Of a stretch of 40,000 nt of DNA, positions 5,313 through 40,000 are shown in pieces. The stretch's first letter is position 1, and every line of letters starts with the position of its first letter. Under the pieces are notes generated by a model, which saw nothing but the letters and a program-made list of their open reading frames with translations, was not told the origin of the DNA and ran no database searches. A program made the translations under genes and the position numbers. This DNA is from Sulfuricellaceae bacterium (GTDB taxonomy: Bacteria; Pseudomonadota; Gammaproteobacteria; Burkholderiales; Sulfuricellaceae): the NCBI GenBank assembly GCA_030690895.1, contig JAUYFQ010000062.1, positions 1 through 40,000 of the forward strand, given 5' to 3'.

Positions 5313-5481
5313 TTACCACGAAACACACGAAATGCACGAAAAATGCAAAAGCGTATAAACAGGTAGTCCATGCGACACCTTACCGAATGAGTGAAAAGAA
5401 AAATATAGCCAACAAATCGATTTTTTCGTGTATTTCGTGTATTTCGTGTATTTCGTGTATTTCGTGTATTTCGTGGTTAAC
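5313..5481. repeat. inverted short-period repeat array: CACGAAA units on the left arm, 5.8 copies of the tandem 9-mer TTTCGTGTA on the right arm
   Basis: Left arm CCACGAAACACACGAAATGCACGAAAAA (5316-5343). Right arm TTTCGTGTA x5 plus TTTCGTGG (5424-5476). The arms are reverse complements around a loop of about 80 nt. Confidence 0.85.
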
Positions 5482-5493
5482 AGGTTTTCAGCT

Positions 5494-6963
5494 TCACGAC
5501 GAGCAACTCACGCTAATGTGCTGCGCCCAGTCCGGGGGGAGGGCGGCGTATTGCTCCATTTCGGGTTGTTCATCGAAGGGGTGCGAGAGCAGGGCGAGCA
5601 AGCGGTCGATCTCGGTGTAATCACGCTGTGAAACCGCTTTTTCGATGGCTATCTGAGCCAGGTAGTTGCGCAAGATGTACTTCGGGTTGACGCTGTCCAT
5701 GCGATATTTGCGTTCTGAATCAAGGCTGTTTTCCTGTACCAGACGGGCGCGGTAGGACTCTGCCCAGTGGTCGAAGGCTGGCCGGTCGACGAACTGGTCG
5801 CGCAGTGCCGGATTCAGTTCGCCGGGCAGGGAATTGAACTGGCCGAGACTGCGGAAAAAATGGGTGTAGTCCACTCGCCCGGCCTTCATCAGCGTCAGCA
5901 GTCCGCTGACCAGTTCGGCGTCCCCTTCCGTCGGCTGCATCAGCCCCAGCTTGGCTGCCATCAAATTCAAGTATTGCGCCTCATACTGCGCCGGGTAGCT
6001 GTCCAGAATCGCCTGCGCTTCTTCAGCCGGGATGATCGGCGTCAATGCCTGCGCCAGGCAGGACAGGTTCCACAAGCCGATATAGGGTTGCTGGTCGAAG
6101 GCATAACGACCTTCGTGATCCGAGTGGTTGCAGATGAAGCCCGGGTCGAAACCATCCATGAAGCCGAAGGGGCCGTAATCGAAGGTCAAGCCAAGGATGG
6201 ACATGTTGTCGGTATTCATCACGCCATGTGCAAAGCCAACCGCCTGCCATTGCGCCATCAGCCTGGCCGTGCGTGTTACCACCTCGGCCAGAAAGCGGGC
6301 ATATCGATCCGGCTCGCCGCTCAGATGGGCATAGTGGCGGTCGATCACATAATCAGCCAGCGCCGCAATCGGCTCGGCCTGCCGACGGTAATAGAATACT
6401 TCAAACGAGCCAAAGCGCACATGCGAGGGCGCCAGGCGCGTGACCACTGCCGCACTTTCTATCGTCTCGCGATAGATTTCTTCATCACTCCCCACGATGC
6501 ACAGCGCGCGCGTCGTCGGGATACCCAGGCCGTGCATGGCCTCCGAGCAGAGATATTCGCGGATGCTGGAGCGCAGCACGGCGCGCCCATCGCCCTGGCG
6601 GGAATAAGGCGTGACACCCGCGCCCTTGAGCTGAATTTCCCAGGCTTCGCCTGACTTGTTTTTGACCTCGCCCAATAAAATGGCACGGCCATCGCCGAGT
6701 TGCGGCACGTAATGGCCAAACTGGTGGCCTGCATAGAGCATGGAAAGCGGCTCGCTGCCGGGCAGCAGGCGATTGCCGGTAAAGTACCCGGCAAAATCCT
6801 CACGCACGGCTTCCTGACTATCCAGATCAATGAGCGCAGCAGCACCGGCATTGAAGCTGACCAGGTAGGGTTCGGGCAGGGGCGTGGGCAACAGCTTGCT
6901 ATGAAACGTGTCCGCCAGGCGGGCAAAGCTGTTGTCGAAGTTGAGTCGGTTGAGTGGGTTCAT
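5494..6963 (-). CDS. selO: protein adenylyltransferase SelO (YdiU/UPF0061 family)
   Basis: 489 aa with an N-terminus typical of SelO (LNFDNSFARL..., HQFGHYVPQLGDGRAILLGEV) and a kinase-like fold signature (GVMNTDNMSILG). Confidence 0.9.
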   Translation of the reverse strand: MNPLNRLNFDNSFARLADTFHSKLLPTPLPEPYLVSFNAGAAALIDLDSQEAVREDFAGYFTGNRLLPGSEPLSMLYAGHQFGHYVPQLGDGRAILLGEVKNKSGEAWEIQLKGAGVTPYSRQGDGRAVLRSSIREYLCSEAMHGLGIPTTRALCIVGSDEEIYRETIESAAVVTRLAPSHVRFGSFEVFYYRRQAEPIAALADYVIDRHYAHLSGEPDRYARFLAEVVTRTARLMAQWQAVGFAHGVMNTDNMSILGLTFDYGPFGFMDGFDPGFICNHSDHEGRYAFDQQPYIGLWNLSCLAQALTPIIPAEEAQAILDSYPAQYEAQYLNLMAAKLGLMQPTEGDAELVSGLLTLMKAGRVDYTHFFRSLGQFNSLPGELNPALRDQFVDRPAFDHWAESYRARLVQENSLDSERKYRMDSVNPKYILRNYLAQIAIEKAVSQRDYTEIDRLLALLSHPFDEQPEMEQYAALPPDWAQHISVSCSS

Positions 6964-20484: not shown

Positions 20485-20495
20485 TGGATTAAGCC

Positions 20496-20607
20496 CAATA
20501 CTGTTCACTTATGCCGTTCGTGGGGAGCTTGTCGAACCACATATCGTTTATCCAAAGCCCTTCGACAGGCTCAGGGCGAACGGTTCAGGGTTAAGTGAAC
20601 AGCATTA
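20496..20607. mobile_element. MITE-like palindromic element flanked by a 10-bp direct repeat
   Basis: Terminal inverted repeats CAATACTGTTCACTTA and TAAGTGAACAGCATTA (14/16), an inner imperfect hairpin (CCGTTCG...CGAACGG), and perfect flanking direct repeats GGATTAAGCC at 20486-20495 and 20608-20617. Confidence 0.6.
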
Positions 20608-20610
20608 GGA

Positions 20611-23600
20611 TTAAGCCAGGGGTTTCTCTCCCCCCTCTTCGGCCAGCCTCTGATAGGCCCGGTAACGCTCCTCAATTTCCTGCTGGAAGACGGCCATGCA
20701 GGCATCGCCTTCCTTCTCGACATGTTTTAGCAAACCACGGAAACGCGGCTCGCTTTTGACCAGGTCGATGAAGGGGATGCTGGGGGCTTTTGAGTCCATG
20801 ACCAGCGGGTTCTTGCCTTCTGCGATGCGTCTTGGGTCGTGGCGGAACAGCGGCCAATGGCCGGAATCAACAGCCAGTTCCTGCTGGTGGTGCTGGTTGC
20901 TCATGTCGTAGCCGTGCTCGCCGCATGGGCTGTAGGCGATGATCAGCGAGGGGCCGTCGAAGGATTCGGCTTCCAGGAAGGTTTTGAGGGTATGGATGTC
21001 CTTTGCGCCGTAGGCGACATGGGCGACATAGACATTGCCGTAGCTCATGGCGATACGGGCCAGGTCTTTCTTGCCGGTGGCTTTTCCGTTGGCGGCGAAT
21101 TTGGCCGTGGCGCCGCGCGGGGTGGCTTTGCTGGCCTGACCGCCGGTGTTGGAATAAACCTCGGTATCGAGCACCAGAATATTGACGTTGCGCCCGGAGG
21201 CCAGCACATGATCGACGCCACCGAAGCCGATGTCGTAAGCCCAGCCGTCGCCGCCGATGATCCAGACGCTTTTCTTGACCAGGTTTTCCGCCAGGCTTTC
21301 CAGATTGCGCGCATCACTAATAAGGGACTCGCGTAGCGAGCCTGTGTCCCTCTCGCCTTTATGCCCTTCAGGGTACTCTGGGAGAGAGTTAGGAGAGAGG
21401 GAAATGATCGTCTTGAGTTTTGCCAATAGCTGCGCCACGCGCTCGCGCTGTTGCTGGATACCGGCTTCGCTGGACTGGTCGGCGGCGAGGATGGCGTCCA
21501 CCAGTTCTGTACCAAGCTGGTCTTTCATCTTTGTCGCCAGTTCGCCAGCATGTTCTGCATGTTTGTCGATGGTGACGCGGAAACCCAAACCAAATTCGGC
21601 GTTGTCCTCGAACAGCGAATTGTTCCAGGCCGGCCCGCGACCTTGCGTGTTCTGGCTATAGGGCGTGGTGGGCAGGTTGCCGCCGTAGATCGAGGAGCAG
21701 CCCGTCGCGTTGGCGACCACCATGCGGTCGCCGAACAATTGGGTAGCCAGGCGAATATAAGGCGTTTCTCCGCAACCCACACAGGCGGTGGGGAACTCGA
21801 ACAGCGGTTGCATCACCATGGCGCCCTTGATGGTGGAAATGCGCAGTTTGGTGCGGTCAAATTCCGGCAGTTTGAGGAAGAAGGCGAAGTTTTCCCGCTC
21901 TGTTACACGCAATGGCGCTTGTGGCCGCATTTCCAGCGCCTTGTGGCCGTCTTCCTTGCTCACCGCCGGGCAAATGTCCACGCACAGGCCGCAGCCGGTA
22001 CAGTCTTCCGGCGCAACCTGATAACTGACATGCATGCCTTCCTCGAACTCCTTGCCCTTGATCTGGATGTGCTTGAAGCTGGGCGGAGCGTCCTTGGCCA
22101 GTTCGGCATCAAATACCTTGGAGCGGATCGCGGTGTGCGGGCAGACGAAGGGGCATTTGCCGCAGTAGATACAGAGCGCTGCGTCCCATACCGGGATTTC
22201 CTGCGCCAGATTGCGCTTGTCGTAATGCGCGGTGCCGGTCGGCCAGGTGCCGTCGTTGGGCAGCAAGGACACCGGGATCAAATCGCCACGCCCGAGCATG
22301 ATTTCCCCGCTTACGCGGCGGACAAAGGCCGGTGCATTGGCCGGGATGTGGTTCTCCATTTCGAAGCAACTGGAAGACTGCTCGGGCACGTCCACCTGAT
22401 ACAGGTTGGCGAGGGTTTCGTCGATGGCTTTCCAGTTGGCTTCGACGATGGCCTGGCCTTTTTTGCCATAGGTTTTTTCAGCGGCGTATTTGATTTTCTC
22501 GATTGCCACGTCTTGCGGCAGCACGCCGGAAATGGCAAAAAAGCAGGCCTGCATGATGGTGTTGATGCGCGTCCCCATGCCAGTGGCGCGGGCGACGGCA
22601 TACGCATCAATCGTATAAAAGCGCAGTTTCTTGTCTATGATCTGTTGCTGCATCTTGCATGGCAATGTCGCCCAGACTTTATCAGGCGCAGCCGGTGAAT
22701 TCAGCAGGAACACCGCATTGTCAGCCGCGTTTTCGAGCATCTCGATGCGCTCGATGAAAATTGGCTGGTGGCAGGCGATGAAATTGGCCTCATCCGTGCC
22801 GATCAGGTAGCTGGAGTGGATGGGCTTGGGCGAAAAGCGCAGGTGCGAGGTGGTCATTGCTCCGGCTTTTTTCGAGTCATAGACGAAATAGCCTTGTCCA
22901 TAGAGTTCGGTTTCCTCACCCATGATCTTGATGGTGTTCTTGTTGGCAGAAACCGTGCCGTCCGAGCCCAATCCATAAAACAGCCCGCGCAACACGCCTG
23001 TCCCCGCATCGACGCGGTAGGCCGGGTTCCAGTCCAGGCTGGTGTGGGTGAGATCATCGATGATGCCGATGGTGAAATGATTCTTCGGTCTGTCCTTGCT
23101 GAGCTCGTCGAAAATGCCCGCGATCATGCCCGGTGTGAATTCCTTGGAGGAGAGGCCGTAACGACCGCCAACTACCGCTAACCCTCTCCCTAGCCCTCCC
23201 CCGCTCTTGTGCCCTTCAGGGTATGCGGGGGAGGGGACCATTGCTCCCTCTCCCGCCTGCGGGGGAGGGTTGGGGAGAGGGTTAATATTGGCGAGGGGGG
23301 TAGTGCTGGCGAAATTATCGAAAACCCCATGTTCTACCAGCGCAGTCACCACGTCCTTGTAAAGCGGTTCGCCATCTGCGCCAGGCTCCTTGCAGCGGTC
23401 GAGCACGGCAATTTTCCGGGTGCTGGCGGGCAGCACTTCGATCAGCCTCGAAGGGTCGAGAGGCCGATACAAGCGCACCTTGACCATGCCCACTTTCTCG
23501 CCGCGTGCGACCAGGTGTTGCACGGTTTCTTCCACCGCCTCGGCGCCAGAGCCCATGAGAATGATGATCCGCTCCGCGTCCGCCGCGCCTACATATTCAA

Positions 23601-24381
23601 ACAGCTTGTACTGACGTCCGGTGAGCTGGGCGAACTTGTCCATTTCATATTGCACGATGCCGGGCATCAGGTCGTAGTAGGCATTGACCGTTTCGCGTGC
23701 CTGGAAATACACGTCGGGGTTCTGCGAGGTACCGCGCACCACCGGGTGCTCGGGCGAGAGCGCACGGGCGCGATGAGCGCGAACCAGTTCGTCGGAAATC
23801 ATTTCGCGTACGGTTTCGATCGGCACTTGCTCGATTTTCGCCACTTCATGCGAAGTGCGGAAGCCATCGAAAAAATGCAGAATCGGAATACGGGCTTCGA
23901 GCGTGGCGGCCTGGGCGATCAAGGCCAGATCCTGTGCTTCCTGCACCGAGTTGGAACTCAGAAAGGCAAACCCCGTCCCGCGCGCGGCCATCACGTCGCT
24001 ATGGTCGCCAAAAATGGACAAGCCCTGCGCGGCCAGCGAGCGCGCCGCCACATGCATCACGAAAGGCGTCAGTTCCCCGGCAATCTTGTACATGTTGGGA
24101 ATCATCAGGAGCAAACCCTGCGAAGCGGTGAAAGTCGTCGCCAGCGCCCCGGTCTGGAGCGCGCCATGAATGGTTCCCGCCGCGCCTGCCTCGCTTTGCA
24201 GTTCGATCACTTCCGGCACAGTGCCCCACAGGTTTTTCTGACCCATGGCGCTCCAGGCATCCGAATATTCCCCCATCGGCGAAGATGGCGTGATCGGATA
24301 AATGGCGATAACTTCGTTGGTGAGGTGAGCGATGTAGGCGGCGGCTTCGTTGCCGTCAACGGTGACTGTGGTGGCTGACAT
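20611..24381 (-). CDS. nifJ: pyruvate:ferredoxin (flavodoxin) oxidoreductase
   Basis: 1256 aa with two ferredoxin-type clusters (CIYCGKCPFVCP, CTGCGLCVDICP), the TPP motif GGDGWAYDIGFGG and AGGAG upstream of the ATG. It carries two repeat-derived in-frame insertions. Confidence 0.95.
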   Translation of the reverse strand: MSATTVTVDGNEAAAYIAHLTNEVIAIYPITPSSPMGEYSDAWSAMGQKNLWGTVPEVIELQSEAGAAGTIHGALQTGALATTFTASQGLLLMIPNMYKIAGELTPFVMHVAARSLAAQGLSIFGDHSDVMAARGTGFAFLSSNSVQEAQDLALIAQAATLEARIPILHFFDGFRTSHEVAKIEQVPIETVREMISDELVRAHRARALSPEHPVVRGTSQNPDVYFQARETVNAYYDLMPGIVQYEMDKFAQLTGRQYKLFEYVGAADAERIIILMGSGAEAVEETVQHLVARGEKVGMVKVRLYRPLDPSRLIEVLPASTRKIAVLDRCKEPGADGEPLYKDVVTALVEHGVFDNFASTTPLANINPLPNPPPQAGEGAMVPSPAYPEGHKSGGGLGRGLAVVGGRYGLSSKEFTPGMIAGIFDELSKDRPKNHFTIGIIDDLTHTSLDWNPAYRVDAGTGVLRGLFYGLGSDGTVSANKNTIKIMGEETELYGQGYFVYDSKKAGAMTTSHLRFSPKPIHSSYLIGTDEANFIACHQPIFIERIEMLENAADNAVFLLNSPAAPDKVWATLPCKMQQQIIDKKLRFYTIDAYAVARATGMGTRINTIMQACFFAISGVLPQDVAIEKIKYAAEKTYGKKGQAIVEANWKAIDETLANLYQVDVPEQSSSCFEMENHIPANAPAFVRRVSGEIMLGRGDLIPVSLLPNDGTWPTGTAHYDKRNLAQEIPVWDAALCIYCGKCPFVCPHTAIRSKVFDAELAKDAPPSFKHIQIKGKEFEEGMHVSYQVAPEDCTGCGLCVDICPAVSKEDGHKALEMRPQAPLRVTERENFAFFLKLPEFDRTKLRISTIKGAMVMQPLFEFPTACVGCGETPYIRLATQLFGDRMVVANATGCSSIYGGNLPTTPYSQNTQGRGPAWNNSLFEDNAEFGLGFRVTIDKHAEHAGELATKMKDQLGTELVDAILAADQSSEAGIQQQRERVAQLLAKLKTIISLSPNSLPEYPEGHKGERDTGSLRESLISDARNLESLAENLVKKSVWIIGGDGWAYDIGFGGVDHVLASGRNVNILVLDTEVYSNTGGQASKATPRGATAKFAANGKATGKKDLARIAMSYGNVYVAHVAYGAKDIHTLKTFLEAESFDGPSLIIAYSPCGEHGYDMSNQHHQQELAVDSGHWPLFRHDPRRIAEGKNPLVMDSKAPSIPFIDLVKSEPRFRGLLKHVEKEGDACMAVFQQEIEERYRAYQRLAEEGGEKPLA
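21346..21404. repeat. intragenic palindromic repeat in nifJ (encodes SLSPNSLPEYPEGHKGERD)
   Basis: Hairpin TCCCTCTC...GAGAGGGA. The 25-mer at 21380-21404 is the exact reverse complement of 31891-31915 (hoxU/Y junction). Confidence 0.8.
23179..23284. repeat. composite intragenic palindromic repeat in nifJ (encodes NPLPNPPPQAGEGAMVPSPAYPEGHKSGGGLGRGL)
   Basis: Two nested hairpins with outer ends TAACCCTCTCC...GGAGAGGGTTA. The core matches the copies at 31925 and 38659 with about 3 mismatches. Confidence 0.8.
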
Positions 24382-28419: not shown

Positions 28420-28490
28420 TGATGAGTAATGGGTGATGGGTAATGAGTGATAAAAACCTCCGCCCATCACCCATCACCCATTACTCATCA
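28420..28490. repeat. heptamer-array palindrome (RGTRATG units) in the divergent region upstream of hoxF
   Basis: Perfect 22-bp inverted repeat TGATGAGTAATGGGTGATGGGT (28420-28441) and ACCCATCACCCATTACTCATCA (28469-28490), each arm built from tandem 7-mers. Confidence 0.85.
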
Positions 28491-30583: not shown

Positions 30584-30847
30584 ATGCTTACCTTTGAGTT
30601 TGACGAATCCAAGAGCCAGGCAAATTTTTCCAAGCACGGCATCAACTTCGTTGATGCACAGCTTCTATGGAATGACCCGATGCTATTGGAAATCCCGGCA
30701 AAAACGGAAGAGGAGCCCCGATATCTGGTGATAGGGCTTATCAACGGAAAACACTGGTCAGCCATCTTCACCCACAGAGGCGTAAATATCCGACTGATTT
30801 CCGTTCGTCGGTCGCGAACTGAGGAGGTAGCACTCTATGAAAGCTGA
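30584..30847 (+). CDS. brnT: BrnT-family (DUF497) type II toxin
   Basis: 87 aa with the pattern FEFDESKSQANFSKHGINFVDA...LISVRRSR typical of BrnT. Overlaps the downstream antitoxin gene. Confidence 0.8.
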   Translation: MLTFEFDESKSQANFSKHGINFVDAQLLWNDPMLLEIPAKTEEEPRYLVIGLINGKHWSAIFTHRGVNIRLISVRRSRTEEVALYES

Positions 30848-31106
30848 AACATTCGATAAGCAGTTTGATGAAGGCGCAGATGTTACCGCCTCTCTGGATT
30901 TATCCAAGGCAAAGCGAGTTTTGCTGGAGCAAAAACGCGTTAACGTCGATTTCCCTACATGGATGATTGAATCGTTAGATCGAGAAGCGGGGAGGCTCGG
31001 AGTTACCCGGCAATCCATCATCAAGGTGTGGCTCGCCGAGCGCCTCGAAAGCTCCGCTCCTGGCACGCAACCCCAGCGGGTGTGCCGCGATGTGGCTCTT
31101 CGCTAA
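30837..31106 (+). CDS. brnA: BrnA-type CopG/RHH antitoxin
   Basis: 89 aa. The C-terminal RHH-like segment (VNVDFPTWMIESLDREAGRLGVTRQSIIKVWLAERL) is typical of BrnA. 11-nt overlap with brnT. Confidence 0.75.
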   Translation: MKAETFDKQFDEGADVTASLDLSKAKRVLLEQKRVNVDFPTWMIESLDREAGRLGVTRQSIIKVWLAERLESSAPGTQPQRVCRDVALR

Positions 31107-31168: not shown

Positions 31169-31906
31169 ATGAAGACTCTGAAAATAGACGGATGCGAAAT
31201 CCCCTTCACCACCGGGCAGACCATCATGGATGCGGCGCTGGCTGCCGGGGTTTATATCCCGCATCTGTGCCATCACCCCGAATTCAAGCCGCACGGTAGT
31301 TGCAAGCTGTGTACGGTGAAGGTGAACGGGCGTCATGTGTCGGCCTGTACCTTGCCGGTGGGCGAGGGTATGGAGGTGGAGAACAATAGTGCGGAACTGA
31401 ATGCCGATCGCCTTGCGCTGGTGCAGATGCTGTTTGTCGAGGGCAATCACTTGTGTCCGACTTGCGAAAAAAGCGGGAATTGCCAGCTCCAGGCGGTGGC
31501 CTACCATCTCAATATGTTGACCCCGCATTACAATCATTTTTACCCGCCGCGCGAGCTTGATGCCTCTCATCCCGATGTGTTCCTGGATCGCAACCGCTGC
31601 ATTTTGTGCGAGCTGTGTGTGCGAGCCAGTCGGGATGTGGATGGCAAGGAGGTGTTTGGCCTTTCCGGGCGTGGAGCCAGTTCCCGCCTGGTGGTGAATT
31701 CACCCAGCGGCAGGCTGGCCGATAGCAGCTTTGCTGTTACCGACAAGGCCGCCAGGGTGTGCCCGACCGGCGCGATTCTGATCAAGCGGGTGGGATTCAG
31801 CGTGCCGATTGGTGAGCGGATTTTTGATCGGCATGACATTAGTGAACTGGGCATTAGTGAACCGGGCGAAGGTGGAGGTCAACATGGCAGTTTCCCTCTC
31901 TCCTAA
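31169..31906 (+). CDS. hoxU: hydrogenase diaphorase iron-sulfur subunit HoxU
   Basis: A 2Fe-2S N-terminus (CHHPEFKPHGSCKLCTV) followed by 4Fe-4S motifs (CPTCEKSGNC, CILCELCVRAS). The last codons and the TAA stop lie inside a repeat element. Confidence 0.9.
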   Translation: MKTLKIDGCEIPFTTGQTIMDAALAAGVYIPHLCHHPEFKPHGSCKLCTVKVNGRHVSACTLPVGEGMEVENNSAELNADRLALVQMLFVEGNHLCPTCEKSGNCQLQAVAYHLNMLTPHYNHFYPPRELDASHPDVFLDRNRCILCELCVRASRDVDGKEVFGLSGRGASSRLVVNSPSGRLADSSFAVTDKAARVCPTGAILIKRVGFSVPIGERIFDRHDISELGISEPGEGGGQHGSFPLS

Positions 31907-32561
31907 CTCTCTCCCGGGGGGTAGCCCCCTCCCCAACCCTCCCCCGCAAGCGGGAGAGGGGGCAATGGTCAAGGGCGCTTGTTCTGATTTGAGGGACGCA
32001 GGCTCGCTTTGCGAGTCTCATATTAGGCCTAAAATCCGTATTGCCACCTGTTCGCTGGCGGGCTGCTTCGGCTGCCACATGTCCTTGCTGGATATTGATG
32101 AAAAACTGCTCGATCTGCTTGAGCTGGTCGAATTCAACCGTAGCCCGTTAACCGATATCAAACACTGCGGGCCGTGTGATGTCGGTATTGTCGAAGGCGG
32201 GGTGTGCAATGCCGAGAATGTCCACGTCCTGAAGGAATTTCGCAAGCACTGCAAGGTGTTGGTCGCCATGGGCGCCTGCGCGATTACCGGCGGCCTGCCC
32301 GCCATGCGCAACAATATTGACCTGTGGGACTGCTTTCAGGAGGTGTATCTGTACGAAGGCGGGCTGGAGGGTGGACAAATTCCAAATGACCCCGAGCTGC
32401 CCCTGCCGTTCGACAAGGTTCACCCCATCTATGAAGTGGTCAAAGTGGATTATTTCCTGCCCGGCTGTCCGCCCTCTGCCGATGCGATCTGGCACTTCTT
32501 GACCGAATTGCTGGCGGGCAGGGAACCAGGCGTGACCGGGAAGCAATTACATTTTGATTAG
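31884..32561 (+). CDS. hoxY: [NiFe] hydrogenase small subunit HoxY
   Basis: The conserved core starts at KIRIATCSLAGCFGCHMSLLDIDE. ATG 31884 has GGAGG 6 nt upstream. An alternative ATG at 31965 lies inside the repeat. The N-terminal ~27 aa are repeat-encoded. Confidence 0.85.
   Translation: MAVSLSPNSLPGGSPLPNPPPQAGEGAMVKGACSDLRDAGSLCESHIRPKIRIATCSLAGCFGCHMSLLDIDEKLLDLLELVEFNRSPLTDIKHCGPCDVGIVEGGVCNAENVHVLKEFRKHCKVLVAMGACAITGGLPAMRNNIDLWDCFQEVYLYEGGLEGGQIPNDPELPLPFDKVHPIYEVVKVDYFLPGCPPSADAIWHFLTELLAGREPGVTGKQLHFD
31888..31977. repeat. composite palindromic repeat at the hoxU/hoxY junction
   Basis: Module TTTCCCTCTCTCCTAACTCTCTCCC (31891-31915) plus a core at 31925-31977 that is 52/53 identical to 38659-38711. 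Confidence 0.85.
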
Positions 32562-32659: not shown

Positions 32660-32938
32660 ATGATTCAGTCATTCAAGTGCAGCATTACGCAGGCGCTGTT
32701 TTCCGGGCAGGCTGCTCCACGCTTTATAAATATCCGTTCTGTTGCTGAACGAAAATTGCAAATGTTGCACCGGGCAACGCGTTTGGATGATTTGCGTATC
32801 CCGCCTCAAAATAGGCTGGAAAAGCTGAAAGGTACTCGCAAGGCGCAATGGAGTATCCGCATCAATGACCAATGGCGCATATGCTTTCGTTTTGAAGATG
32901 GGAATGCTTTTGAAGTTGAGATCGTGGACTACCACTAA
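32660..32938 (+). CDS. higB: HigB-type (RelE/ParE superfamily) toxin
   Basis: 92 aa with IRINDQWRICFRFEDGNAFEVEIVDYH, typical of plasmid-maintenance killer HigB. Confidence 0.8.
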   Translation: MIQSFKCSITQALFSGQAAPRFINIRSVAERKLQMLHRATRLDDLRIPPQNRLEKLKGTRKAQWSIRINDQWRICFRFEDGNAFEVEIVDYH

Positions 32939-33046
32939 CGGGCATGGCGAATTGCCGCCCCAAATAATGTACCCATGGGCATAAAAAACATCGATTCGCC
33001 ATGCCCGTTTCCCCCACCCCTGCCCTCCCCCGGTGGGAGAGGGGGA
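32939..33046. repeat. two repeat hairpins in the higB-higA spacer
   Basis: Hairpin CGGGCATGGCGAATTG (32939-32954) with CGATTCGCCATGCCCG (32992-33007), then a degenerate GC-rich core CCCCCACCCCTGCCCTCCCCCGGTGGGAGAGGGGG (33011-33045). Confidence 0.65.
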
Positions 33047-33084
33047 CGAAGGCAACGCTTCGCGTTGTTTCACGTTAAAAGGAA

Positions 33085-33399
33085 ATGATTGTGACTGTGA
33101 CCAATGGCATGCGCCCGATTCATCCGGGAGAAATTTTGCGCGAGGAATTCATGATCCCTCTGGGACTGTCTGCCAACGCGTTGGCGCTCGCCCTGCGCGT
33201 ACCTGCGCCACGCGTTAATGACATTGCGCGAGAGCGACGCGCGATCAGTGCCGATACCGCTCTACGCCTGTCACGCTATTTTGGCACCAGCGCGGAATTC
33301 TGGCTGGGCTTACAAGCTGACTTTGACCTGAAAATCACTCAGGCTGAAAATGGCATCAAAATTGAACAGGATATTGTCCCCATGCCCGTTGCGGCATAG
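33085..33399 (+). CDS. higA: HigA-family HTH antitoxin
   Basis: Contains HPGEILREEF...GLSANALALALRVPAPRVNDIARERRAISADTALRLSRYFGTSAEFWLGLQ, classic HigA/VapI. Alternative ATG at 33109. Confidence 0.85.
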   Translation: MIVTVTNGMRPIHPGEILREEFMIPLGLSANALALALRVPAPRVNDIARERRAISADTALRLSRYFGTSAEFWLGLQADFDLKITQAENGIKIEQDIVPMPVAA

Positions 33400-36578: not shown

Positions 36579-39500
36579 TTAACCCGCCACCACTCGAACC
36601 CTGCCTTGCTCATCCCGCACAGCCCGCCCCAGCGCCACCAGGGTTTCCAGCAGTTGCGGCAAGCGTTTTTTCCATGCGCCCTTGCCGCTGAAATGCTCGG
36701 CCAGCTCGGACTCGGAAAGCGGCTTGCCTGCGCTGGACAAAATCTGGGCGATGGCGGCCATTTGGGCGGGGAGTTCGGCGGGCCAGGGGGATTTGCTTTG
36801 CGCATTCTCCCCCTCGCCGGTATTTACCCCCTCCCCAACCCTCCCCCGGAGGGAGAGGGGGCTATCCATTGGGGTTTCAGCGTTTGTACCATTAAGTTGC
36901 TGCTGTTGCGGGGCTGCCTGGGGATGCTGGTAGGCGGGGCGCAGCCAGCGGATTTGGCCTTGGGCTTCCTCGGCGGCGCGTTCGGTGTTGAGGGCGACGA
37001 GTCTTTCGAGGATAGTTTCGGCCACGCCCCCTTCTCCTCCGGCCTGGTAGGGCGCAATAACCAACGGGCATTGCGCCGGAGGCATCTGGTGCAATGCGCC
37101 ACGCTTATTGCACCCTACAATATCCAGGTCGCTCCAGCCATAAGCTTGCAGCACCGCCGCATCAAGGTCGTCGTGGAAGGATTTGAGCACGGCGACCAGG
37201 CCTTTTTCGTAAATCGCCTGCTCCTTCGCGTTTCGGTCTGCGCCAGTTCTCAGTTTTTCCAGCACGTTATATAGCCCGGTCAGCGTTAACTCTGGATGCT
37301 CGGCCAGCACGCGCTTGCGGTGGGCGTCGAGCTGTTCGGCGAGAGAGCGAATGCGAGCAGATAAAACAAATCGCTCTTGTCCATTGCCCCCTCTCCCTCC
37401 GGGGGAGGGTTGGGGAGGGGGTAAGTCGGGGAAAGGGAAAGTCTCGAAGCAGCGGGATTTGTTGTAGCGCGGCCTGTCTTCCAGCGTGCCACCTTGCGCC
37501 AGCGCCCAGATGACATGCACCTGGCTCGACAGCACGCCCAGCCAATAAGCATCATCGAGCGCGATGCAAATCAGTTTGTTGTCCGGCGCAATTTCAGCAT
37601 CCAGAAACTGGAAAACTCGGTGCTTGGCGGTTTCGACGGTGGCGATGTAGCGTGGCAGGCCGGTGAGCGTGGCACGCATGACTTTGCGCGGCTCTCCGAA
37701 AATCCACCAGTTGTCGCGGTAACTTGCCCGGTTGTTGAGGTCACGTTCGGGTTTTACCCGTTCCAGCACCCATTGATAGGTGGCTGGCCAGCGGCGACGC
37801 ACTTCGTCTGCATCATGGCCGTAGAGATCGATCAATTTGACGCCGCGCGGTCGGTCGGTGAGGTCGCGACCATTGCGGTAGGGCTTGATTGGCGCATCGG
37901 TTTCGAGTTGCGCAGCTTGTTCCGGCGTGACGATAAAACCCGAACCAAACAACTGAAAACCACGATTCGCAAGCCCTTCATTGGCCCGCAACCCCAACGC
38001 CCCCGCCACATTCGCCCCAATGCTCAAGTCGGCATGAATCACGCCAACACGCTGTGCCAGCGTCACTTCCAACCCCTCGCCGCTGCCGCTTCGCTCGTCG
38101 GTCACGGTGAGCAGGCATCCCTGCTCCCCTCTCCCTCCGGGGGAGGGGGTGGGGGTGGGGGAGGGGGAGGGGGAGGGCACGCCAACCGTCATCGCAATCC
38201 GAACCGCCGCGCCGCCGCTGTTTTCCACCCAGGGATGGTCGGGGATGGCGAAGGCCAGGTGTAGCATCTTCACCCTCTCCCCAACCCCTCTCCCGTCAAG
38301 GGAGAGGGGTTTTTCTCCCCTCCCCCCTCGCGGGGGAGGGGCTGGGGGAGAGGGGTTTAAGGTCGGAGAGGGAGATAAATACGCTTCCAGCACGCGGCGG
38401 TTGAAGGTCTGGCGCAGGCTGTTGGTGGTGATGAAGCCAAAGCGTTGCGCCTTGCCTGCTGTGACCAGCGCGGCGGCCTTGTGCCACCAGAACATGACCA
38501 GGTCGGCGGATTCCGGCACCTCCGGGTAGGCGGCGCGCAAGGCGTCCACGTAGGCGTCGCCCAGCGCGGCACGCATGGCGGATGCGCCGATGAAGGGCGG
38601 GTTGCCGATGATGTAGTCGGCTTCGGGCCAATCTGCTGGTTTACCCTTGCCTGCTTTACCCCCTCCCCAACCCTCCCCCGCAAGCGGGAGAGGGGGCAAT
38701 GGTGAAGGGCGATGGGTTTTATCTGGGGGCAATGGTGAGGGGCGATTGTTTAGAACGGCGTCACGGCATTCGATGTTGTGAAAATCGCGCAGCACCGGTT
38801 CGGGCGGGAGGCTGGCGCCTTTTGTGCGGAAGTGCCATTGCAGGTGGCCGATCCATAGCACCAGTTCGGCGATGGCGGCGGCGCGGGGGTTGAGTTCGAT
38901 TCCAAGAAACTGGTGCGGATCGACGGTCAGTCCTTCGGCGTCGAGACTGCCGGAGGCGCCGAGGTCTTGCAGCAAATCCAGCACTTCGCCTTCGAGCCGC
39001 TTCATGTGTTCCATAGTGACGTAGAGGAAGTTGGCCGAGCCGCAGGCGGGGTCGAGTACGCGAATGTTGCATAGCCGGTAGTGGAAGGCGCGGATTTCCT
39101 GTTGCGCTTCTTTTGCGCGGCCTTCGCGGTCGAGCAGCAGGGCGGCGGCCTGGATGTTGGCCCATTCTGCGCGTAGCGGTTCCATCACGGTGGGGAGCAC
39201 CAGGCGTTCGACGTAGGCGCGGGGGGTGTAGTGCGCGCCGAGGCTGTGGCGTTCGCTGGGGTCGAGGGCGCGTTCGAGCAGGGTGCCAAAAATGGCGGGT
39301 TCGACCAGCGTCCAGTCGGCATGGGCGGCGCGTAACAAAAGGGTGATTTGTTCGCGGTTTAACGCTAGCGCGGTTGGATTTTTGAAGAACTTGCCGTTGA
39401 AGCGCGGCAGTTTGGCGCGCAGGGCGATGGAGAAACCGCCGCTGTCCATTTTTTGCCACAGTTCGCTGACCATGGCTTCAAATTGTTCCGGCGCGTCGGC

Positions 39501-40000
39501 CAGACTTTCGAGCAGGGCGGTGAAGCCGCCTTTGCCGTCTTGTCTGGGTAGCAGGGCGACATCTTCGGCGAACAGGGTGAACAGGCAGCGGGTGAGGAAT
39601 CCGGCGACTTCGTGGGTGTCGTGCCCGGCCTGTTCGAGCGATTTGGCGAGCAAAGCGAGGTCGGCGGAGATTTTACGGGTGACTTTTGCGGAGATGCGGG
39701 TGGGGTCGAGCGCCATGGGGTCTAGCCAGACCTGGCGCAGGCGTTCGCGGATTTCAGGCCGGTTCAGGTCGGGTATGCGGATGCGGTGGCTGCCAGGGTC
39801 GGGATAGGGCAGGTATGCGCCGCCACTGCGGCTGAATTCGCTGTATAGCTCGATGACATCGCCGACATCGATGATGATCAGAAAGGGTGGGCGGGTTTCG
39901 TCAGATGGCAAGCTGCGGGCGTAGTTTTGCGCTTGGCCATGGGCGCCGCGCAGGGCGATTTTAGCACCCTGAGTTTCGCGGTTCTGCTGCACGCCTTTGG
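36579..40000 (-). CDS. MmeI-like (type IIL/IIG family) N6-adenine DNA methyltransferase; 5' end outside the window
   Basis: SAM motif I VLDPACGSANFL, motif IV NPPFIGA, and a helical spacer FLTRCLFTLFAEDVALLP as in the MmeI family. The frame stays open to the window edge, so the GTG at 39992 is probably internal. Five repeat-derived insertions. Confidence 0.8.
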   Translation of the reverse strand, partial: KGVQQNRETQGAKIALRGAHGQAQNYARSLPSDETRPPFLIIIDVGDVIELYSEFSRSGGAYLPYPDPGSHRIRIPDLNRPEIRERLRQVWLDPMALDPTRISAKVTRKISADLALLAKSLEQAGHDTHEVAGFLTRCLFTLFAEDVALLPRQDGKGGFTALLESLADAPEQFEAMVSELWQKMDSGGFSIALRAKLPRFNGKFFKNPTALALNREQITLLLRAAHADWTLVEPAIFGTLLERALDPSERHSLGAHYTPRAYVERLVLPTVMEPLRAEWANIQAAALLLDREGRAKEAQQEIRAFHYRLCNIRVLDPACGSANFLYVTMEHMKRLEGEVLDLLQDLGASGSLDAEGLTVDPHQFLGIELNPRAAAIAELVLWIGHLQWHFRTKGASLPPEPVLRDFHNIECRDAVLNNRPSPLPPDKTHRPSPLPPLPLAGEGWGGGKAGKGKPADWPEADYIIGNPPFIGASAMRAALGDAYVDALRAAYPEVPESADLVMFWWHKAAALVTAGKAQRFGFITTNSLRQTFNRRVLEAYLSPSPTLNPSPPAPPPRGGRGEKPLSLDGRGVGERVKMLHLAFAIPDHPWVENSGGAAVRIAMTVGVPSPSPSPTPTPSPGGRGEQGCLLTVTDERSGSGEGLEVTLAQRVGVIHADLSIGANVAGALGLRANEGLANRGFQLFGSGFIVTPEQAAQLETDAPIKPYRNGRDLTDRPRGVKLIDLYGHDADEVRRRWPATYQWVLERVKPERDLNNRASYRDNWWIFGEPRKVMRATLTGLPRYIATVETAKHRVFQFLDAEIAPDNKLICIALDDAYWLGVLSSQVHVIWALAQGGTLEDRPRYNKSRCFETFPFPDLPPPQPSPGGRGGNGQERFVLSARIRSLAEQLDAHRKRVLAEHPELTLTGLYNVLEKLRTGADRNAKEQAIYEKGLVAVLKSFHDDLDAAVLQAYGWSDLDIVGCNKRGALHQMPPAQCPLVIAPYQAGGEGGVAETILERLVALNTERAAEEAQGQIRWLRPAYQHPQAAPQQQQLNGTNAETPMDSPLSLRGRVGEGVNTGEGENAQSKSPWPAELPAQMAAIAQILSSAGKPLSESELAEHFSGKGAWKKRLPQLLETLVALGRAVRDEQGRVRVVAG
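36805..36873. repeat. intragenic GC-rich palindromic repeat, methyltransferase locus A
   Basis: Core CCCCCTCCCCAACCCTCCCCCGGAGGGAGAGGGGG (36827-36861), translated antisense as SPLSLRGRVGEGV. Confidence 0.75.
37381..37425. repeat. intragenic GC-rich palindromic repeat, methyltransferase locus B (reverse orientation)
   Basis: CCATTGCCCCCTCTCCCTCCGGGGGAGGGTTGGGGAGGGGGTAAG, translated as LPPPQPSPGGRGGNG. Confidence 0.8.
38120..38177. repeat. intragenic repeat hairpin plus G5-run tract, methyltransferase locus C
   Basis: CCCCTCTCCCTCC/GGGGGAGGGGG followed by (G5N)n to 38177; encodes PSPSPSPTPTPSPGGRGEQG. Confidence 0.75.
38268..38378. repeat. intragenic double palindromic repeat, methyltransferase locus D
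   Basis: Hairpins at 38273-38309 and 38315-38355; encodes SPSPTLNPSPPAPPPRGGRGEKPLSLDGRGVGERV. Confidence 0.75.
38637..38752. repeat. intragenic GC-rich palindromic repeat, methyltransferase locus E
   Basis: Core at 38659-38711 (52/53 identical to 31925-31977) plus a direct duplication of GGGGGCAATGGTGA(A)GGGCGAT. Lies between the DAVL motif and WPEADYIIGNPPF. Confidence 0.8.

Follow-up and report, generated by a model that had tools for sequence, protein, structure and literature searches.

Rickettsia palindromic elements (RPEs), which Ogata and colleagues are said to have described in 2000 as "selfish DNA in protein-coding genes", are AT-rich repeats of about 100–150 bp found in obligate intracellular Rickettsia. 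A second family of short repeats, known as BoxC, PIT (potential intrastrand triplex) or, as the triplex motif of Enterobacteria, TMECO (PMC4666352, which cites Hoyne/Maher 2000), follows the pattern 5'-CCCTCNCCC N3-6 GGGNGAGGG N3 GGGNGAGGG and has been counted 3610 times across 262 proteobacterial genomes (Holder et al., 2015, NAR, PMC4666352). These repeats frequently stand as palindromic pairs, give a stable triplex in vitro, have no link to transposons and are tied to small local deletions, for which slippage and repair at the motifs have been proposed as the cause of local instability; in Escherichia coli K-12 MG1655 the copies are reported to be always intergenic (PMC4666352). For some 30 years the family has had neither an assigned function nor a mechanism of spread. 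Here we examine a 40,000-nucleotide stretch of DNA (hereafter the window; positions 1 to 40,000, forward strand, of contig JAUYFQ010000062.1 in GenBank assembly GCA_030690895.1, from a Sulfuricellaceae bacterium), in which nifJ, the gene for pyruvate:ferredoxin oxidoreductase (PFOR), carries two segments of repeat DNA that are read through in frame. We consider it probable that a BoxC/PIT/TMECO-type repeat was recently inserted in frame into a loop of PFOR, is tolerated there under a filter of selection and spreads via repair or recombination.

The host gene lies on the minus strand (20611..24381) as an uninterrupted open reading frame (ORF) of 1256 codons and encodes a homodimeric-type pyruvate:ferredoxin (flavodoxin) oxidoreductase. 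Within it a net 117 nt at 23179..23295 (minus strand), here called insert 1, add 39 amino acids in frame, LANINPLPNPPPQAGEGAMVPSPAYPEGHKSGGGLGRGL, which form residues 363–401 of the protein and fall in alignment columns gapped in the homologues with the exception of a sister sequence, P0001. The limits of the insert were set by the columns gapped in every sequence from P0003 onward, in an alignment with the 11 nearest or representative homologues. All but 11 nt of insert 1 belong to a 106-bp composite palindrome (23179..23284; TAACCCTCTCCCTAGCCCTCCCCCGC...GCGGGGGAGGGTTGGGGAGAGGGTTA in the letters of the window), recognized from its inverted arms, from a regular expression for the repeat unit and from its fold energies, and built of two three-box repeat units in inverted orientation. 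Its outer ends read TAACCCTCTCC...GGAGAGGGTTA, its arms of 26 nt are 92% complementary and 54 nt apart, and its minus-strand translation is NPLPNPPPQAGEGAMVPSPAYPEGHKSGGGLGRGL.

The regular expression places unit 1 at 23244..23281 (minus strand), with a first box (boxA) CCCTCTCCCC, the spacer AA, a second box (boxB) CCCTCCCCCGC, a loop and a third box (boxA') GGCGGGAGAGGGAG, and places unit 2 at 23182..23237 (plus strand), inverted with respect to unit 1. The hairpin loop of unit 2 is widened at its apex by an 18-nt module, TACCCTGAAGGGCACAAG (23206..23223, minus strand, located by exact search), which encodes YPEGHK; in the protein alignment the sister P0001 lacks the YPEGHK stretch at this position. 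The remaining 11 nt of insert 1, a leader reading CTCGCCAATAT on the coding strand (23285..23295, minus strand) and encoding part of LANI, likewise form part of the inserted repeat: a 51-nt match between insert 1 and a copy at 36802-36852 runs through the leader, and since the same leader also precedes the repeat at 36811, all 117 nt are repeat-family sequence. The initial annotation of this locus, made from the sequence alone, had recognized the 106-bp palindrome with these ends and the peptide read through it, both exactly as we find them, and had put the insertion at about 35 amino acids encoded by 106 bp; the insertion itself stands, and its net size becomes 39 amino acids and 117 nt.

Chance is a very poor explanation of the palindrome. 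Its fold as a single strand has an energy of -40.3 kcal/mol for DNA (z=-5.7) and of -79.7 kcal/mol for RNA (z=-6.4), energies that cover Watson-Crick pairing only, and none of 200 shuffled sequences was as stable; its terminal 11-mer occurs 5 times in the window against an expectation of 0.27, and the copies at 31922 and 38655 each share with it a stretch of 49 nt at 92% identity. No match in the window reached the gathering score of an Rfam model, and the repeat family has no Rfam entry; the sub-threshold Rfam matches on the palindrome are to eukaryotic microRNA hairpin models, at less than half their thresholds, and were treated as noise.

A full-text literature search for GGGAGAGGG led to the description of the BoxC/PIT/TMECO family (PMC4666352), with which the window repeats share most features. 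The units have a three-box architecture—a pyrimidine box, 1–4 nt, a second pyrimidine box, a loop and a purine box—of which a typical example reads TTA-CCCCCTCCCC-AA-CCCTCCCCCGC-AA-GCGGGAGAGGGGG-CAATGG. The second pyrimidine box is complementary to the purine box, with which it can pair as a hairpin. Because the first box mirrors the second, it would run parallel to the purine box, as an intrastrand triple helix requires. A regular expression for this architecture, used in place of one relaxed triplex pattern that found no match in a DNA search, recovers 10 units in the window which, with a variant at 33008, make at least 11. The strict TMECO pattern has its sole exact match in the window at 23246-23281 (plus strand), inside insert 1 of PFOR, with no match in 100 shuffles, and the remaining units fit the relaxed three-box definition only. 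The main type (C5TC4-AA-C3TC5 with G5AG3) keeps mirror symmetry, as does a variant at 38273-38309 (CCCTCTCCCC / CCCCTCTCCC / GGGAGAGGGG), and the units form inverted, palindromic pairs at 23182-23281 and 38273-38355.

The composite palindrome is thus a head-to-head pair of BoxC/PIT/TMECO-type units, and the window repeats, judged by sequence and architecture, are a member or a close variant of that family: the three-block C-G-G architecture, the exact pattern match, the dispersed multi-copy distribution, the inverted pairs, the association with small local indels and the want of a known transposase are common to both. One reported property fails, that of intergenic location. Whereas the copies of E. 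coli K-12 MG1655 are reported as intergenic, 9 of the 11 window units lie inside two genes, those for PFOR and for an MmeI-like protein, where they are in frame and translated. The window units differ further in that most are a variant, CCCCCTCCCC-AA-CCCTCCCCCG..., with a 2-nt second loop, in that their hairpin loops can be expanded or hold nested elements, and in their host, here a betaproteobacterium; the core 18-mer of the repeat also occurs outside Proteobacteria. The intergenic copies of the window are an insert-2-type element between hoxU and hoxY (31891..32026, plus strand), in whose hairpin loop a three-box unit (31925-31962) is nested, and a three-box unit between higB-like and higA-like genes (33008..33045, plus strand).

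Comparison with other PFORs supports the view that insert 1 is inserted repeat DNA and not an ancestral linker of the enzyme. The window PFOR matches the structures of the enzymes from Moorella thermoacetica (6cin) and Desulfovibrio africanus (1b0p and 7plm) in the Protein Data Bank (PDB) at E=0, and these alignments break cleanly at query residue 352, opposite residues 350/352, and restart at query residues 398-403, so that residues 353-397 are unaligned against 6cin and 1b0p; the Pfam match to PFOR_II likewise ends early, at residue 351. Insert 1 is absent in 10 of the 11 aligned homologues. Elsewhere it occurs in P0001 only, a protein 95.2% identical to the window PFOR and from an independent assembly, in a shorter form of 29 amino acids whose edges are those of the protein alignment. 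A partial Sulfurimicrobium PFOR of the same 90% cluster (P0242) lacks it and reads ...VEHADDDGHFATLPRVVG; none of the best 80 metagenomic relatives of PFOR residues 300-470 has it, their matches spanning about 133 and not 171 residues; and, P0001 excepted, it is not present in some 200 other PFORs among the matches listed. At the DNA level the filled site of the window was set against the empty sites of two related loci, L001 (from a Sulfurimicrobium metagenome-assembled genome, MAG) and L002, and the length differences between alleles are all multiples of three (117, 87, 81, 63 and 18 nt). The window PFOR measures 1256 residues against 1189–1210 in its relatives because its two inserts add 66.

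These results bear out each point that had been proposed from the sequence alone, namely that the segment is flanked on either side by recognizable, frame-matched PFOR sequence, that the protein is longer than usual by about the size of two inserts, and that the segment is a repeat, with DNA matches to intergenic copies in the window, and not a conserved linker. Two of the checks then suggested, an alignment with the Desulfovibrio africanus enzyme and a structure prediction, came out in the same sense: the 1b0p alignment breaks at the insert and resumes after it, and the insert is modelled as an unstructured loop in domain II. In an AlphaFold model of a fragment covering residues 255-470, the core of domain II reaches a predicted local distance difference test (pLDDT) score of 74-94, and the insert region (residues 353-399) has a pLDDT of 33-39 and no secondary structure, lying between a helix (341-351) and a strand (402-405). 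Insert 1 is accordingly predicted to form an unstructured loop at the edge of the alpha/beta domain II, and it would probably be exposed in the PFOR dimer. A model of residues 1-1200 was poor (mean pLDDT 47.9) and was not used.

The gene that carries the inserts is intact. There is no stop across its 1256 codons; Pfam recognizes POR_N, PFOR_II, POR, EKR, Fer4 (the ferredoxin domain) and TPP_enzyme_C; and the protein has the domain set I–VII, the thiamine diphosphate (TPP)-binding motif and the three [4Fe-4S] cysteine motifs that define a PFOR. Every column invariant in 12 or in 63 PFORs is kept, including the cluster cysteines and the GDG...NTGGQ thiamine-diphosphate motif. The ratio of nonsynonymous to synonymous substitution (dN/dS) is 0.11 against L001 and 0.09 against L002, and a ratio near 0.1 indicates that the gene is under purifying selection; the NCBI record of the protein (MDP2828304.1, Sulfuricellaceae MAG) is annotated as an intact coding sequence. 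A pseudogene, which would have undone the reading of a tolerated insertion, is thus unsupported within the window. A junction-spanning peptide of the insert-bearing PFOR would be, for example, ...TTPLANINPLPNPPPQAGEGAMVPSPAYPEGHK. The short spacer between PFOR and a convergent protease gene is taken up by an inverted repeat with 27-nt arms, 85% complementary and separated by 80 nt (window 20485-20618), which overlaps the PFOR stop codon.

The second insertion, insert 2, is placed in domain VI of PFOR, where alignment and DNA comparison define a net 81 nt (21319..21399, minus strand) encoding 27 amino acids in frame, LSPNSLPEYPEGHKGERDTGSLRESLI, residues 995-1021; repeat similarity around it covers 21317-21404. 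It is a related but distinct palindromic element, CTCTCTCCC-loop-GGGAGAGAG followed by a second small hairpin, has no inverted termini and finds its best match in the intergenic copy at 31891-32026. Besides the window it occurs in P0002, the PFOR of the Sulfurimicrobium MAG (locus L001), and it is absent in P0001, in P0005 and in all other aligned homologues, so that presence and absence are split within two clades, the window against P0001 (95% identity) and P0002 against P0005 (96%). The empty site in L002 reads ATCGATTCCGCCGATGCG, and comparison with it reveals only ambiguous microhomology as regards a target-site duplication. The two filled sites, of the window and of L001, share about 91% identity, no more and no less than their flanks do, and differ by a clean extra 18 nt in the hairpin loop of the window copy, TACCCTGAAGGGCATAAA (21358..21375, minus strand; DNA comparison and exact search).

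These 18 nt are a second copy of the module that widens the loop of unit 2 in insert 1. The module, TACCCTGAAGGGCAYAAR, has exactly two perfect copies in the window, both in PFOR, 1.85 kb apart and at the apices of two different hairpins, and no copy was found in the 121 other loci searched. A third near-match, at 1907-1924, has three mismatches; it is part of the normal coding sequence of a VWA/NorD-like ORF and was put down to chance. DNA identity between the window and P0002 is mosaic along the PFOR gene and raised around insert 2; a recombination tract carrying insert 2 between them is only suggestive, because P0005, which has no insert, is just as close in this region when proteins are compared.

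The paired units together with the 11-nt leader, 117 nt in all, are thus a recent insertion between a helix and a strand of PFOR domain II, and domain VI has received a related element of 81 nt. To account for their tolerance, we propose that most reading frames through such an element would be open, since TAA, TAG and TGA cannot arise within homopyrimidine or homopurine boxes; across the copies examined 2–6 of the 6 frames are open, and in most copies at least three. Purifying selection would then keep only those insertions and length changes that come in multiples of three and fall in permissive loops or linkers, and the product, a low-complexity peptide rich first in Pro/Ser/Leu and then in Gly/Glu/Arg, would be a by-product of the DNA element. 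Spread and remodelling would most likely begin where the hairpin or triplex causes the DNA to break or replication to stall, and continue as template switching or gene conversion between the numerous similar copies; this would explain nested apex insertions, the swapping of loops and the presence or absence of an element at the same site in close relatives. Three observations fit such a model—the 18-nt module at two apices, the complete unit nested at the same apex position in the intergenic element at 31891-32026, and insert 2 present and absent within two clades—and together they point to repair or recombination over a transposase.

Several points weigh against this proposal. Even the E. coli motif lacked support for triplex formation in vivo (PMC4666352), and both units in PFOR are hybrids whose boxA is an imperfect Hoogsteen match to boxA', with 1–2 mismatches. 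The coding strand of insert 1 is free of stops in the used frame only, and the argument that no stops are possible therefore holds for the boxes and not for the loops and ends. That PFOR works with its inserts is argued from the open frame, the kept residues, dN/dS and the annotation, and a second nifJ may lie outside the 40-kb window. Both structural models were built on a shallow alignment of 63 sequences with at least 63% identity, and the surface position of the loop is deduced from the fragment and from topology. The mechanism of spread is a matter of inference, and the TA dinucleotides that flank the palindrome would also fit the TA target-site duplication of a MITE, or miniature inverted-repeat transposable element, of the IS630/mariner type.

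This last point opens the way to a rival account in which the composite palindrome is a classical MITE, moved in trans by, for example, an IS630/Tc1-mariner-type transposase that duplicates TA, and landed in frame by chance. The composite can indeed be read as TA + ACCCTCTCC...GGAGAGGGT + TA, its terminal inverted repeats of 26 nt (92% complementary) and its size of about 106 bp are those of a MITE, and in-frame MITE insertions are known in other bacteria (e.g., PMC5896051, PMC10969869). The flanking TA may, however, simply belong to the palindrome, and the single three-box units are asymmetric, with TTACCCCC... at one end and ...GGGGGCAATGG at the other, and have neither inverted termini nor consistent TA flanks, so that the size and terminal repeats of a MITE are found in the 106-bp composite but not in single units or in insert 2, which has no inverted termini. 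No transposase gene or cognate insertion sequence was noticed among the window ORFs examined, a scan of the large ORFs and selected small ones, and the published family is without transposon association (PMC4666352). We regard a MITE as an unlikely source of the insert.

A different objection would be that the insert is a selected functional addition, either a regulatory mRNA structure acting as a translation pause or on transcript stability, or a new loop for protein interaction. The predicted RNA hairpin in the coding region is very stable (-80 kcal/mol), the insert has been kept in two lineages, those of the window and of P0001, and both PFOR inserts have gained the identical 18-nt module. 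Yet the same repeat DNA stands between genes and in unrelated genes, in other frames and orientations, so its peptide is no conserved protein module; the insert differs in length from one of the two closest relatives to the other, has no counterpart in any of the other PFORs compared and encodes a peptide predicted to be disordered, and we hold a selected function to be improbable. Still less credible is an artefact, whether a mis-assembled or chimeric contig or a decaying pseudogene: the sequence does come from a metagenome-assembled genome, and mis-assembly is notoriously frequent at repeats, but PFOR is colinear and in frame on both sides of the insert, without a stop in 1256 codons, P0001 comes from an independent assembly of another sample (IMG 3300059473; a 76.5-kb contig) with a related insert at the same site, a third assembly (L001) has insert 2 at the same site, and the dN/dS of about 0.1 speaks against decay.

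An in-frame insertion of repeat DNA, tolerated by PFOR, recalls the RPEs in its behaviour. Like them, the PFOR and MmeI-like copies are short palindromic repeats that stand in frame in conserved protein-coding genes and are translated, apparently at permissive, surface-type positions and with the function of the host protein kept. The two are set apart by composition and host, the window elements being GC-rich homopurine/homopyrimidine repeats of the triplex type in a free-living sulfur-oxidiser lineage, and would be unrelated as sequence families. By analogy the PFOR insert may be regarded as an RPE-like case of "selfish DNA in a coding gene" that arose from a triplex-motif repeat. With the wider group of MITE, REP and REPIN elements (Correia, Nezha, the Coxiella QMITEs and REPIN-RAYT) the window repeats have in common that they are small, palindromic, hairpin-forming, multi-copy and occasionally in frame in ORFs, and the PFOR composite resembles the inverted doublet of a REPIN; they differ in that the single units are not bounded by inverted repeats and show no consistent GTAG/CGTC head or target-site duplication. 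Most units begin with TTACCCCC, and GTAG is found only in the copy at 31918. No RAYT-like ORF was noticed among the window ORFs, which is weak evidence, the genome not having been searched. By the GTAG/CGTC head and by RAYT, the repeats of the window are not REP or REPIN elements. The repeat family is thus a known one, its location is new for BoxC/PIT/TMECO as so far reported, and its behaviour is like that of a known phenomenon from another lineage; a literature search found no report of in-frame BoxC/TMECO insertions, although its coverage was incomplete and this is not proof of novelty.

PFOR is not the only gene of the window that has taken up these repeats. An MmeI-family type IIL restriction-modification ORF (36579..39992, minus strand; Pfam MmeI_hel, MmeI_Mtase and MmeI_TRD; PDB 5hr4) runs off the window, belongs to a full protein of 1245 amino acids and is 100% identical to P0121 (MDP2828318.1). 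It contains 5-6 in-frame repeat units, at 36811-36865, 37358-37440, 38125-38177, 38266-38355 and 38640-38751, and the repeat-coded segments are absent from homologues. MmeI-family homologues of other Betaproteobacteria (P0123, P0124 and P0126) have LPSPxGxGxGGEG-type inserts of their own, some of them at the alignment position of those in the window protein, which suggests either recurrent use of the same sites or old, decaying insertions.

Beyond the window, the core 18-mer CTCCCCAACCCTCCCCCG was found at no fewer than 119 loci in many phyla, and in nearly all of them the loop and a G-rich box (GGGGGAGGG or GGGAGAGGG) come next. The loci (L003-L121, e.g., L009, L015, L016, L066 and L072) belong to Alpha-, Beta- and Gammaproteobacteria, Chloroflexi, Planctomycetes, Acidobacteria and a genome of the candidate phyla radiation (CPR), and their hosts include Bradyrhizobium, Azospirillum, Methylocystis, Xanthobacter, Gallionella, Thioalkalivibrio, Chloroflexi, Planctomycetes and Thermoanaerobaculia. 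Loops and flanks around the 18-mer are lineage-specific; its identity across phyla may reflect horizontal spread, a shared binding factor or structural convergence. Many of the long stop-free ORFs across the motif in other genomes are probably due to chance in GC-rich DNA, and we kept only those with Pfam domains on both sides, namely a leucyl-tRNA synthetase (LeuRS) and ThiC. The LeuRS of Gallionellaceae UBA2239 (L072:2622-5618, minus strand) exceeds 6q89 by three segments that the repeat encodes in frame: one of about 47 amino acids, one of 22 and one of 17. Their positions are the junction of the catalytic and editing domains, the interior of the catalytic body and the stretch ahead of the anticodon-binding domain. 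In the ThiC gene (L118:3828-6200, plus strand) the repeat is in frame, is read as SPLPNPPPQAGEG and lies in the linker between the ThiC-associated and radical-SAM domains. PFOR and ThiC translate the repeat DNA as PLPNPPPQAGEG, LeuRS and the MmeI-like protein as PSPQPSPACGGG / PPPQPSPGGRGG, and both orientations occur; because the DNA is read in different frames and orientations from gene to gene, the propagating unit would be the DNA and the peptide its by-product. In-frame insertion of these repeats therefore seems to be general in the Sulfuricellaceae genome and in related lineages.

A bolder generalization, possible but on present evidence doubtful, would see BoxC/PIT repeats as selfish DNA that spreads actively and without a transposase across phyla, favours the hairpin apices of copies already present for re-insertion or conversion, routinely colonizes the loops and linkers of essential enzymes (PFOR, LeuRS, ThiC, restriction enzymes) thanks to its stop-free boxes, is the counterpart of the RPEs in free-living bacteria and acts as a general source of disordered, Pro/Gly-rich insertions. 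The related filled, partly filled and empty alleles described here offer a natural system in which to study insertion, remodelling and excision, and the value of the locus lies more there than in PFOR itself. For annotation, it matters that such elements lengthen ORFs, create spurious 'PLPNPPPQAGEG' or 'PSPxxGxGxG' peptides and split domain matches, and for protein evolution they may be a ready source of disordered loops. A coding-region hairpin of -80 kcal/mol must moreover be unwound by the ribosome, and it could affect the expression of PFOR, which links pyruvate to ferredoxin, and of the adjacent Hox hydrogenase.

The neighbouring hoxFUYH(W) operon, for a bidirectional hydrogenase, is broken up by two toxin-antitoxin cassettes of type II, at window 30584-31106 and 32660-33399. 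The first is a BrnT/CopG-like pair that separates hoxF from hoxU; the second, a HigB/HTH pair, separates hoxY from hoxH and has a three-box repeat between its toxin gene and its antitoxin gene. No such interruption divides the four hox genes of the relative L002. Arms of 26 nt with TGATGGGTAATG-like motifs form a near-perfect inverted repeat (96% complementary, 19 nt apart; window 28420-28490) that overlaps the start of the hoxF ORF at 28443 and may be a regulator binding site or a hairpin. Elsewhere in the window, a tandem array of about 5-6 copies of a 9-nt unit, TCGTGTATT (5417-5479), lies at the edge of an ORF on the minus strand (5494..6963).

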